From assembly GCA_964365535.1 (NCBI GenBank), contig CAYIQG010000001.1, positions 1-50,208 of the forward strand: a stretch of DNA of 50,208 nt, in the 5' to 3' direction. Made by a program: the position numbers and the translations under genes. Source of the stretch: an uncultured Candidatus Saccharibacteria bacterium. Lineage in GTDB: Bacteria; Patescibacteriota; Minisyncoccia; Phycocordibacterales; PALSA-1337. Under the pieces are notes generated by a model. It searched no databases. It was not told the DNA's origin and was given only the letters and a program-made list of their open reading frames with translations. Within the stretch, counting starts at the first letter, position 1. Each line of letters begins with the position of its first letter. Positions 2,086-24,032 of this stretch are shown here, in pieces.

Positions 2086-4623
2086 TTACTTCAACTCCCC
2101 CCAATTCATACCAATATGAATCTGCGCCGTCATGGCAATTCCTTTTGTTTCTTTGGGACCAACAATGCCTTCCATTATTTTCTTTATCTCTTCCGCAATC
2201 TCTTCCGCCTTATCCTCACGAATCTCAAAAACCAATTCATCGTGAACTTGCAATAGTGGAAATGCAATATCATCCAACTTTTTTTCTATAAAATATTCAT
2301 CGATTCGAACCATGGCCAATTTTATAATATCCGCTTCAGTGCCTTGAATAGGCGCGTTTATCGCCATTCTCTCGGCTTGCGCCTTGATGTACGGAATTTT
2401 GGAATAAATGCCCTCAAAATATCGTCTTCGACCGAACAAAGTCTCCGTGTATCCCTTCTCTGCGGTTTCAACTTTTACTTTATTTAAATACGAAGCGAGA
2501 GTGGAGAAGGTATTGAAATAATCATTCAAGAATTTCTGCGCTTCCTCGCGGGTCGAACCGAGATTTTGTTTCAAGGCGAGAACTCCCATGCCGTAAATAA
2601 TGCCAAAGTTGATCACCTTTGCCTGACGGCGCATTTCCGGAGTAATGTTTTTTGGTTCAACATTAAAAACAAATGAGGCAACCTGAGTATGCACATCCTC
2701 GCCTTTTTTGAAAATATCAATCAACTTTTCGTCGCCGGACAAAAAAGCGGCGATACGCAATTCCATCTGCGAATAATCAAGCGCGACAAGTTTGAATCCT
2801 TTTTCGGCGATGAACGCCCTGCGAATGGCTCGACCGAGTTCTGACTTCACTGGAATATTCTGCAAATTAGGCTCTTGTGAAGCCATTCTGCCGGTAGTCG
2901 TCCCTGACTGGAGAAAATGCGTATGTAGTCTATCATTCGCGTCGAGCAAAGGCGGAATAGCGTCAATATAAGTCCCGAGTAGTTTCGCCAATTCACGGTA
3001 CTCGAATATCATCGGAATCACAGGATGCATATCGCGCATCTTTTCCAATTCCGATTCTTTTGTGGAACGCGCGCCGCCGGCGGTCTTCTGTTGATTTTTC
3101 ACTTTCAACCCCAATTTGTCAAAAAGAAATTCGCCTAATTGTTTCGGTGAATTGATATTAAATTCGCCGCCCGCTTCATTCCATATTTTCTTTTCAAGTC
3201 CCTCGATAACCGAATGATATTCTTTCGATAATTCTTTCAATAAAACGCGGTCAACTTTGATTCCTCTTTCGTCCATCTTGTGAACTGCTGGAATTAAAGG
3301 TAATTCAATTTGCTCATAGACTTTTCTCAAATTTCTCTTGTCCAACTCCTCGAAAATAGCTTTTCTCGCGACTTCAAAGTCATTCGTATCCGCAAATCGC
3401 AAAATATCATCTAATTTTGGGTTTGTTATGTTGGAATCAATAAGCCATAAAGCGATTGCGACCTTTTCCAAATCGTCAACCGCTCCCTCTTCGGCGCGAC
3501 GAAGTGTCTTCGTTTCGCTCCGCTCCGCTCCGCGAAAGTCGACACTTGTCGCCGCCTCAACGGTCGCGGCTGGCGAATTACTCAAAGCATTTATTCCGAT
3601 AACCTTCTCAAACCTCTGTGGCAATGTCCGAAACTCCAATTCCCGCCATAACGCGCTTATTTTTTTCAAGTCTAGATTTTCCTTGAATGTTTTCTCCGGC
3701 AAAACAAAATCAATAGGTACATCCAAGCGAATAGTAGCTAGTGTTTTACTAAACTCCGCCTCCTCTTTATTATCTTTCAATAATTGAATAAGCCTTGGAC
3801 TAATTCCCGCCTTTTCAAACTTCTCTTCATGGCCAGATTCTAATTCTTGGTACATATTCTCTATCGAGCCGAATGTTGTAATCAATATCGTAGCCGTCTT
3901 TTCGCCTATTCCTTTTATTCCCGGGATATTATCAGACGGGTCCCCGCGAAGACCTTTGTAATCTGGAATGAGTTCGGGACCGAAACCGAAACGAGCGTTA
4001 ACGGCCTTTTCATCGTACATTATCGTGTCGTTTATTCCCTTCTTTAGGGTATAGACTTGCACCTCTTTGCCGCGAATGAGTTGCATGGTATCCATATCGC
4101 CAGACGCGATTATTATTTCTATACCATAAGATTCGTTGACCGCGTCGCTTCTGGCGGGAACAGCTCTTCCTCGCTCGGCTTTCGCCTCCTCGGAAGACTG
4201 TTCCCGCCCAAGCGACGCGGCTGACGATTTGCTTGAAGTCATTTGTTGAACAATAGTCCCGATAATATCATCCGCCTCAAAGCCCTGCTTATCGTAAATT
4301 GGAATATTGAGCGCCTCGAATATCTTACGCGAACTGAGCATCTGCGCTACGAGGTCGTCTTCGGCTTTTTTGCGGCCGGCTTTGTATTCTTTGTAGGCTT
4401 CGTGGCGATAGGTCGGACCTTTGACATCATAACAAGCGACAATATAGTCTGGTTTCAAATCTTCGATTATCTTTATGAGCATTGCCGAGAGACCGTAGAG
4501 AGCCCCGGTCGGCTCGCCTTTCCTGGTCGTGAAATCAGGCAGGGCGTGATAGGCGCGATGCAATATAGCATGCGCGTCCAATAGCACTAATCTTTTCTTT
4601 TTCCCCGCGTATGTCTTTGCCAT
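2086..4623 (-). CDS. polA: DNA polymerase I (5'-nuclease plus polymerase domains, reduced central region)
   Basis: N-terminal 5'-3' exonuclease motifs (LLDAHAILHRAYHA, GIKGIGEKTA). C-terminal family-A polymerase motifs (LVALDYSQMELRI, RRQAKVINFGIIYG, LQVHDELVFE). Confidence 0.95.
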   Translation of the reverse strand: MAKTYAGKKKRLVLLDAHAILHRAYHALPDFTTRKGEPTGALYGLSAMLIKIIEDLKPDYIVACYDVKGPTYRHEAYKEYKAGRKKAEDDLVAQMLSSRKIFEALNIPIYDKQGFEADDIIGTIVQQMTSSKSSAASLGREQSSEEAKAERGRAVPARSDAVNESYGIEIIIASGDMDTMQLIRGKEVQVYTLKKGINDTIMYDEKAVNARFGFGPELIPDYKGLRGDPSDNIPGIKGIGEKTATILITTFGSIENMYQELESGHEEKFEKAGISPRLIQLLKDNKEEAEFSKTLATIRLDVPIDFVLPEKTFKENLDLKKISALWRELEFRTLPQRFEKVIGINALSNSPAATVEAATSVDFRGAERSETKTLRRAEEGAVDDLEKVAIALWLIDSNITNPKLDDILRFADTNDFEVARKAIFEELDKRNLRKVYEQIELPLIPAVHKMDERGIKVDRVLLKELSKEYHSVIEGLEKKIWNEAGGEFNINSPKQLGEFLFDKLGLKVKNQQKTAGGARSTKESELEKMRDMHPVIPMIFEYRELAKLLGTYIDAIPPLLDANDRLHTHFLQSGTTTGRMASQEPNLQNIPVKSELGRAIRRAFIAEKGFKLVALDYSQMELRIAAFLSGDEKLIDIFKKGEDVHTQVASFVFNVEPKNITPEMRRQAKVINFGIIYGMGVLALKQNLGSTREEAQKFLNDYFNTFSTLASYLNKVKVETAEKGYTETLFGRRRYFEGIYSKIPYIKAQAERMAINAPIQGTEADIIKLAMVRIDEYFIEKKLDDIAFPLLQVHDELVFEIREDKAEEIAEEIKKIMEGIVGPKETKGIAMTAQIHIGMNWGELK
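3493..3556. repeat. Imperfect GC-rich palindrome with (CGCTC)x3 centre, inside the polA coding sequence
   Basis: ggcgcgacgaagtgtc ... cgctccgctccgctccgcg ... gacacttgtcgccgcc. It encodes the RGAERSETKT segment. Boundaries are approximate. Confidence 0.4.
4140..4220. repeat. 81-nt palindromic element inserted in frame in polA
   Basis: Arms ccgcgtcgcttctggcgggaacagctcttcc (4140-4170) and ggaagactgttcccgcccaagcgacgcgg (4192-4220) are reverse complements apart from 2 small indels or mismatches, with a 21-nt loop. 81 nt equals 27 codons. Confidence 0.7.
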
Positions 4624-13242: not shown

Positions 13243-13402
13243 AAAGTCCCCACACAATATTTGTTTTTTGCGTCCGAGAACTTGTCTGAATGGAGTATAA
13301 ATTGCTAGAAATATTAGCGACACTGTTAGGAGCCAATATTTCTTGCAATTTAACGACATGAGTCTCGCAGGACGCAAAAAACAAATATTGTGTGGGGGCT
13401 TT
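13243..13402. repeat. Foldback element copy B: 28-bp perfect arms (33 bp with one T.G) around a 94-nt core
   Basis: 13248-13275 ccccacacaatatttgttttttgcgtcc is the exact reverse complement of 13370-13397. The core is about 95% identical to copy C. Confidence 0.9.
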
Positions 13403-16192: not shown

Positions 16193-16361
16193 CGCACCTC
16201 GCGAGAGGAACATTTCATTTCTCACAGCCGAGAATTTTGTTTGAATGGAGTATAAATTGCTAGAAATATTGGCGACACCGTTAGGAGCCAATATTTCTTG
16301 CAATTTAACGACATGAGTCTCGCAGGCTGTGAGAAATGAAATGTTCCTCTCGCGAGGTGCG
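16193..16361. repeat. Foldback element copy C: perfect 37-bp arms around a 95-nt core
   Basis: 16193-16229 cgcacctcgcgagaggaacatttcatttctcacagcc is the exact reverse complement of 16325-16361. The inner hairpin is 16254-16306 with a 13-nt loop. Confidence 0.9.
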
Positions 16362-23801: not shown

Positions 23802-24032
23802 AAGTTGTCTCCAGTATATACCTGTTTATAATTCTGGGAACTTGTGGAGAGGCGTAAAATATGTTGATAAGTTGTGGAGAACTTTTTTTGAGTCTCATTG
23901 CGAAGCCGACACTTCCCGGAGTGAGCCTTAGCGGAGCGGAGCGATTAATGGCTCACGGAGGGAATGTGTCGGCGAAGCAAAAGAGACTCAAAACTTGTAT
24001 AATTACCCAAAAAATGTAATACTCTACAAATC
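23802..24032. promoter_or_regulatory. dnaA/rpmH divergent control region: candidate second oriC half
   Basis: Two TTGTGGAGA repeats (23842-23850, 23872-23880) spaced 30 bp apart, each one mismatch from the reverse complement of TTATCCACA. A long hairpin lies at 23888-23991. Confidence 0.4.
23888..23991. repeat. Long imperfect palindrome (about 40-nt arms) with GCGGAGCGGAGCG in the loop
   Basis: ttgagtctcattgcgaagccgacacttcccggagtgagcc / ggctcacggagggaatgtgtcggcgaagcaaaagagactcaa. It shares the GACACTT and (GCGGA)n motifs with the polA insert at 3493-3556. Confidence 0.6.

Follow-up and report, generated by a model that had tools for sequence, protein, structure and literature searches.

How does a long palindrome come to lie, in frame, inside the 5'-nuclease domain of a DNA polymerase I gene? 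The question is raised by polA in a 50,208-nucleotide stretch of DNA (hereafter the window; contig CAYIQG010000001.1 of assembly GCA_964365535.1) from an uncultured Candidatus Saccharibacteria bacterium, in which an 81-nt palindromic element had been noticed from the sequence alone. Searches of the window's own assembly (633 kb in 97 contigs, by BLAST and iterated nhmmer) and comparison with its relatives indicate that the polA element is very probably a copy of a non-autonomous hairpin-forming repeat, and that as a coding palindrome it resembles the Rickettsia palindromic elements (RPEs) in behaviour.

A hairpin within the polA reading frame

The polA frame occupies positions 2086-4623 of the minus strand, encodes 845 aa and contains, in frame, a 28 bp imperfect hairpin at 4140-4220 that is composed of three blocks (11 + 11 + 6) and a 21-nt loop. 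The sequence is as originally described, with arms of about 29 nt that adopt a 28-pair fold. Folded as RNA the hairpin reaches -68.7 kcal/mol (z = -10.1), a value equalled by none of 200 shuffled sequences, and folded as DNA it reaches -37.6 kcal/mol (z = -7.9). It encodes AASLGREQSSEEAKAERGRAVPARSDA and is flanked by the motifs ADDIIGT and SGDMDTMQL, which confirms in the 845-aa frame the position that had been assigned to it. The high local G+C content that had been remarked upon is equally evident, with 0.56-0.60 at the element against ~0.35-0.50 across most other polA sequence and 0.417 genome-wide. The original prediction gave the element as 81 nt or 27 codons, and although this is correct for the hairpin, the inserted unit as delimited by the alignment of copies is 90 nt long (4138-4227; 30 codons, residues 133-162), since the right arm is succeeded by a 7-nt tail, CTGACGA (4221-4227), that is also conserved. 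Codon 133 starts at 4227 and codon 162 ends at 4138, and the reading direction is antisense relative to the orientation of the repeat model (Table 1). PolA has matches in the PDB to Taq and mycobacterial Pol I, and a look-up of the exact product of this gene returned no record.

A dispersed repeat family with a maintained stem

A search of the genome, of the kind that had been suggested as a check, shows that the polA palindrome is not unique. nhmmer recovers 27 family copies from the genome, 80-96 nt long and 76-96% identical, and such counts are lower bounds as the assembly is fragmented and several of its contigs end in copies. Two subfamilies, assigned by eye from the alignment of the copies, can be distinguished: subfamily A has the outer stem ACCGTGTCGC, the inner stem GGGAACAG and the tail CTGACGA, and subfamily B the outer stem GCCCCGCCGC, the inner stem GGGAGGAG and the tail GAATRAC. 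The loop occurs in two to three length variants, the steps between which keep the in-gene copies at a multiple of three.

The hairpin stem is maintained by compensatory change. In a 25-copy alignment 95.5% of the cells in the stem hold standard pairs, compared to 86.7% in shuffled alignments and ~44% when the pairing partners are slid, and changes on both sides are found in 13 of the 28 stem pairs, a number matched by none of 500 shuffles. The shuffle control overstates the significance since the copies are related by descent, but the slid controls and the count of doubly changed pairs are still clear. A search of Rfam with the element matched no family, introns included, and the sub-threshold hits (tsr24, mir-503 and mir-22) fall far below the gathering cut-offs.

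The family is present in two of the 93 species of the genus, namely the source genome and a sister species, and absent from 24 + 16 relatives that include 16 other families of the order. The original prediction had named an insertion shared by unrelated lineages as the observation that would speak against it; 91 of the 93 species lack the element, as do the 16 other families. The sister is represented by the metagenome-assembled genome CAYHQT01, which has ~82% nucleotide identity to the source genome and whose record is labelled Candidatus Saccharibacteria, the PolA homologues that carry an organism name being assigned to Paceibacterota or to the Patescibacteria group. Its assembly in the GTDB set lacks polA, and the sister polA used here was taken via a protein cluster. 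The core motif was also found in 40 metagenome contigs, all from the Hainich groundwater wells H41 and H43, which form three groups: high-coverage contigs identical to the genome, low-coverage contigs resembling the sister, and a third group at 94-98% identity. For family copies other than that in polA, matches of 99.7-100% identity are present in contigs assembled independently from metagenomes of three samples. The family is regarded as young and as restricted to two co-occurring species.

Some copies have a more complex structure. In recJ (C4:15757-15941) two copies of the polA family, here also called family 1, lie in tandem and in opposite orientation and add 64 residues to RecJ, where the sister has a single copy (L109). 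The inner part of the element is inverted in place at L047:4587-4671 relative to C20:3656-3736, and also at C27:4293-4378 (mnmA), with the outer stem and the TAPP...SGGAN ends retained. Only the middle has changed strands, which suggests that the two arms have recombined with each other. Two sister copies, L042:881-974 (pheT) and L041:725-816, contain an extra nested palindrome, TCCGCCAATTTGGCGGA, within the loop.

Length and frame of the copies inside genes

Long open frames (>180 codons, taken as stop-to-stop stretches and not as gene calls) contain 21 of the 27 copies. This share of 0.78 equals statistically the 0.83 of the genome that lies in such frames (p = 0.43), and genes are thus not avoided by the family. 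The proposal that palindromic DNA lies in frame within essential genes is thereby extended to ~21 copies in housekeeping genes confirmed by Pfam. Hosts that act in replication and repair are DnaE, DnaG, LigA, RecJ (with its two tandem copies), TopA, a UvrD/PD-(D/E)XK helicase-nuclease and a PIF1-like helicase. Those connected with translation and RNA modification are ValRS, PheT, LepA, TypA, MnmA, RsmE, an S-adenosylmethionine (SAM) methyltransferase and the C-terminal end of ribosomal protein L15, and the remaining Pfam assignments are PyrG, TatD, a class-V aminotransferase, a beta-CASP metallo-beta-lactamase nuclease and a type IV coupling protein. A further host frame, resembling a 2-oxoacid oxidoreductase, was identified by eye only. 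The DnaG frame (C88, 610 codons) combines a LAGLIDADG intein-like insert (PF14528), a family-1 copy and an LDSRFRGND hairpin of the SRM type, and the aminotransferase frame (C33) has, towards its 3' end, a stretch of masked bases that translate as X.

The hairpin cores of in-gene copies measure 79, 82 or 85 nt and belong to one class modulo 3 in 19 of 20 cases, compared to 80, 80, 80, 86 and 82 nt in the five copies situated between genes or at a gene end (Fisher p = 0.002). The core is free of stop codons in all six frames, and a single phase per orientation is used by all 21 in-gene copies (p ~3e-10). Subfamily A is read antisense in 9/10 copies, giving SSAVSLGRE..ERGRAVPARSD, and subfamily B is read sense in 10/11, giving PPLLAGGALPRS..HPSGGAN; subfamily and reading orientation are associated (p = 3e-4), and the in-gene copies thus yield two conserved peptides, one per subfamily. 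The sister species uses identical reading frames, copies at sites common to both species not being independent events. In a six-frame translation the frames in use are nearly charge-neutral and contain the fewest hydrophobic residues, two frames are strongly basic, and one sense phase out of three runs into a stop codon in the tail.

Insertion into a predicted disordered loop of PolA and into other hosts

In the alignment that had been called for, the GTIVEQ helix and the IEIIIASGD strand are separated by 2-10 residues in most PolA orthologues and by a different insert in others, and over the genus the length of this loop ranges from 2 to ~40 residues. In structure alignments PolA residues 128-165 face 3 residues of Taq polymerase, and residues 128-163 face 1 residue of chain 6vde. 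An AlphaFold model, made for PolA alone among the hosts (21 sequences, mean predicted local distance difference test score (pLDDT) 75), gives residues 133-165 as coil with pLDDT below 50, situated in the 5'-nuclease domain between helix 117-130 and strand 168-173. The surface loop anticipated earlier thus appears in the model as a disordered loop. Since the ADD metal ligands mark the start of the helix and the GDMD ligands the end of the strand, the topology places the loop at the far end from the active site, and the insert is therefore probably remote from the metal-binding aspartates.

A flank-N{0,30}-flank search of metagenomes for an empty polA allele gave no match. For the other hosts empty sites were searched with a query of joined flanks and aligned with an affine-gap aligner, and relatives without inserts were found at the valS, pheT, dnaE, cysteine desulfurase, lepA, typA, recJ and mnmA sites. 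The sister species itself lacks the lepA copy, where the family part amounts to exactly 30 codons, and the dnaE copy, where the 39 codons include extra flanks that do not belong to the family. Conversely, four sister copies face sites without an element in the source genome. Since private insertions exist in both directions, the family was active before and after the species split, having spread in the common ancestor of the two species and continued to do so thereafter.

Table 1 Coordinates of the polA element and its host gene within the window
Feature	Position	Strand	Description	Basis
Full unit in polA	4138..4227	-	Residues 133-162, SSAASLGREQSSEEAKAERGRAVPARSDAV; subfamily A	Boundaries from alignment of 25-27 copies
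Left arm	4140..4170		28 paired positions, 2-nt internal loop, 1-nt bulge	Folds and pair counts
Loop	4171..4191		21 nt, small inner GGC/GCC stem	
Right arm	4192..4220			Folds and pair counts
Asymmetric tail	4221..4227	+	CTGACGA, conserved in subfamily A	Alignments and six-frame translation
Host gene polA	2086..4623	-	5'-3' exonuclease N-terminal (PF02739) and C-terminal (PF01367), DNA_pol_A (PF00476)	Pfam

The same loops with different palindromes

Several of the loops that hold a family-1 copy in the source genome hold other palindromes in its relatives. The polA loop, with subfamily A here, contains in the sister a 27-nt hairpin, GGATTCCCGC-TTT-CGCGGGAAT, which codes for LDSRFRGND, and in other species of the genus inserts of the SRM type (G002 and G011) or other inserts (G007 and G010). 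Three further loops hold subfamily B here. In topA a third family is found in the sister and a double SRM palindrome of -93 kcal/mol in G002, and in pyrG the sister has the family of a second polA hairpin described below and G002 yet another palindrome. In the beta-CASP nuclease the sister shares the outer stem with the inner part inverted, and G003 has an SRM-type insert. The SAM methyltransferase site holds subfamily A here and a member of another palindrome family (family 2) in the sister. At the PIF1 and cysteine desulfurase sites the two species have different subfamilies in opposite orientation. Conversely, five sites of sister copies are occupied in the source genome by other palindromes, three of them by a 165-nt foldback family and two by others. 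The foldback copies at C41:3306-3490, C49:1812-2028 and C55:2407-2571 are intergenic and lie at sites of sister family-1 copies. Ordinary low-GC loops that are not palindromes were found as UvrD inserts (G003 and G005) and as a methyltransferase insert (G002). These hot loops may mean that few loops are permissive, that elements insert into hairpins already present, or that recombination replaces one palindrome by another.

Candidate enzymes

The genome encodes one Y1 transposase frame of the RAYT-like type (C23:2466-3113, minus strand, 216 codons; Y1_Tnp, 31.8 bits) with HUH-like and YIHLNP motifs. The gene is flanked by a 20-nt palindrome, CAGGATGTGNCNCATCCTG, which differs from the polA family, and as its contig also lacks a family copy it was rejected as the cognate enzyme. 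The same 20-nt palindrome is also part of the transposase coding sequence, in frame (QDVSHPE), and the neighbouring GTPase gene has it at its end. Two small stand-alone GIY-YIG proteins (C63:2160-2351, 83 codons; C6:9693-9908, 105 codons) adjoin tRNA genes and were likewise rejected, being flanked by other hairpins and not by the family; the C63 gene is surrounded by several unrelated short hairpins. The genome also contains ~20 hairpins of the SRM type, ATTCCCGC. A longer element with the same ends as the family was sought with nhmmer and none was found.

Proposed origin of the polA element

It is proposed that copies of the repeat would insert anywhere in the genome and that those surviving within genes would be the ones that add a multiple of three bases, lie in a surface loop and are read in the single frame that is benign for their subfamily. 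In polA, the 90-nt unit would have inserted into, or replaced the content of, the loop between helix 117-130 and strand 168-173. Its transcription and translation would give the protein a hydrophilic, disordered loop of 30 residues, tolerated by the enzyme and presumably of little cost to the cell. Mobility would proceed via a single-stranded hairpin intermediate with an enzyme acting in trans, the folded single strand most likely being what the copying machinery recognises.

Several observations do not sit easily with this proposal. Neither the Y1 gene of the genome nor its two GIY-YIG genes, the enzymes examined, can be linked to the family, and the sites show no consistent target-site duplication or clean cut-and-paste signature: the empty sites in lepA, dnaE and pheT and those between genes have no duplication, and the one possible case, of 9 nt, is at L045:4283. 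Many shared sites differ in subfamily, orientation or family between the two species, which simple random insertion followed by selection does not predict. Moreover, one antisense frame looks harmless yet is never used, and peptide hydropathy and charge, rejected as the full cause of the frame lock, account for part of it only. A further possibility is an undescribed hairpin-to-hairpin mobility in Patescibacteria. Certain loops of essential proteins would provide fixed landing pads, and small palindromic modules would act on the hairpins already there, by homing into them, replacing them or flipping inside them. Unrelated palindromes would then re-occupy the same loop in sister species, and the elements would be frame-locked coding cassettes that use one of six open frames, possibly served by a stand-alone Y1 HUH or GIY-YIG enzyme. 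Such a mechanism is considered speculative and rather unlikely.

It is also conceivable, albeit improbable, that the hairpin is retained because, as DNA or RNA, it serves the cell: as a site for a single-strand-specific nuclease or regulator, as a signal in recombination or DNA uptake, or as an mRNA structure by which translation is paced between folding units. The coding copies would then be a side effect. The strong stem covariation and the conserved asymmetric 2x1 internal loop, bulge and 7-nt tail agree with this, as do the two stand-alone GIY-YIG proteins and the ~20 SRM-type hairpins, given that Ssn nucleases cut beside such hairpins in single-stranded DNA (PMC11893778), and the finding of hairpins of some kind in the same protein loops of several species. 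However, a family found in just two of the 93 species of the genus has no conserved function, its copies lie at different positions in the two species, the ATTCCC-N-GGGAAT core is absent and neither GIY-YIG gene is flanked by the family, and the covariation is explained equally by a requirement of mobility. Considerably less probable still is that the element is not translated at all but cut from the mRNA or bypassed by the ribosome, so that the protein keeps its short ancestral loop. An RNA hairpin as stable as -68.7 kcal/mol would indeed obstruct ribosomes. Ribosome bypassing has precedents in gene 60 of phage T4 and the 'byp' elements of yeast mitochondria, and bypassed GC-rich hairpin inserts are known in mitochondria. 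Yet an untranslated insert would not need a length that is a multiple of three, the absence of stops or a single phase, all of which are seen in genes and relaxed between them; nor did Rfam return a match, introns included, and the flanks have no evident conserved pair of take-off and landing codons. Finally, an ordinary lineage-specific expansion of the PolA loop, or an assembly artefact, that is palindromic by chance can be given virtually no weight. The variation of the loop from 2 to ~40 residues over the genus would allow for an expansion, but both possibilities are refuted by the census, in which another 26 copies, 76-96% identical, were found in unrelated genes; the fold z-score of -10 and the near-identical copies in the independent metagenome contigs also speak against them. 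A mobile hairpin-forming repeat therefore remains the preferred explanation.

Comparison with known palindromic repeats

The original reports of the RPEs are said to be those of Ogata et al. in 2000 (Science 290:347) and Ogata et al. in 2002. Their behaviour, for RPE-1 to RPE-10, is summarised in PMC10969869: they are short palindromic repeats present in dozens of copies in small host-dependent genomes, lie within genes about as often as the coding share predicts, in frame and with a conserved peptide, and occupy fold-compatible positions, all of which is also true of the polA family; no transposase is known for the RPEs either. The polA family likewise has the features of the class, being a dispersed palindrome with in-frame copies that encode a conserved peptide, inserted at a fold-tolerant site where orthologues lack it. 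The likeness is one of behaviour; homology in sequence would be unlikely, as the host belongs to an unrelated phylum (Patescibacteria) and the unit of 90-96 nt is shorter than the ~100-150 nt of the RPEs. Further differences are that the stem of the polA family is demonstrably kept by compensatory change and that the family is limited to two sister species. We know of no RPE report in which the same loops carry unrelated palindromes in neighbouring species.

REP and REPIN elements, which RAYT (Y1 HUH) transposases mobilise, are also hairpin-forming and non-autonomous, with stem covariation and a conserved asymmetric flank, and a RAYT-like Y1 gene is present in this genome. REPs are extragenic by definition, whereas 78% of the copies of the polA family lie in long open frames, and the RAYT-like gene is flanked by the other, 20-nt palindrome. 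Membership of the REPIN/RAYT system was therefore rejected, the copies not being extragenic and the Y1_Tnp gene not being flanked by the family. SRM/NTS hairpins are abundant repeats of 20-50 nt that are enriched in symbionts and recognised by Ssn GIY-YIG nucleases (PMC11893778). Hairpins of the SRM type occupy the same polA, topA and metallo-beta-lactamase nuclease loops in related species, but the polA family is roughly double the length of such hairpins, has no ATTCCC...GGGAAT core and does not adjoin GIY-YIG genes. Membership of the SRM/NTS-Ssn system was set aside on the same grounds, with the core absent from the family consensus and the GIY-YIG genes not flanked by the family. Bacterial miniature inverted-repeat transposable elements (ERIC, Correia and others) are small non-autonomous repeats with occasional in-frame fusions (PMC10969869). 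Their terminal inverted repeats match a parent insertion sequence and they generate target-site duplications; for the polA family no longer element with the same ends and no consistent duplication, one possible 9-nt case apart, were found. In-gene copies of these elements are the exception and not the rule. The coding palindromes of Nematomorpha mitochondria are similar in that long inverted repeats lie in frame in essential genes, but they belong to organelle genomes, both of their arms encode conserved protein and there is no dispersed family (PMC6649704).

The literature search found no paper describing such elements in Patescibacteria. In-frame selfish palindromes have long been seen as a curiosity of Rickettsia, and here they occur in an unrelated, ultra-small and host-dependent lineage with cleaner genetics. 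The combination of private insertions and shared sites with measurable selection on length and frame and with stem covariation makes this a useful case, in which the origin of new loops in essential proteins, their tolerance in reduced genomes and hairpin-to-hairpin targeting become testable. Such inserts also inflate and disrupt protein alignments and gene calls in genomes of the candidate phyla.

Other palindromes in the window and the genome

The wider claim of the original prediction, that palindromic DNA repeatedly colonises coding regions, is borne out by at least three further palindrome families that behave likewise in the genome and its sister species. A second GC-rich hairpin of polA lies at 3475-3580 (minus strand), in the linker that follows the 5'-nuclease domain, with the arms GGCGCGACGAAGTGTC / GACACTTGTCGCCGCC. 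This patch was rejected as a member of the same family, as it is a different palindrome and present in a single copy in the genome; its arms recur in the pyrG insert of the sister species (L108). Family 2, of ~110 nt, is represented in the window at 23891-23988 (intergenic) and at ~15 further loci, including C15:1215-1328, C8:17469-17584 and C34:521-631, and has the stem module GGGAACAG/CTGTTCCC in common with the element in polA. In-frame copies are found in the PIF1 helicase, in LepA and in the oxidoreductase-like frame, where the family encodes the peptide IREQSRDEADTFPRDLAARGD..., and at several sites it is found in the source genome where the sister has family 1. Further copies of the 165-nt foldback family are located in the window at 1416-1577, 13243-13402 and 16193-16361.

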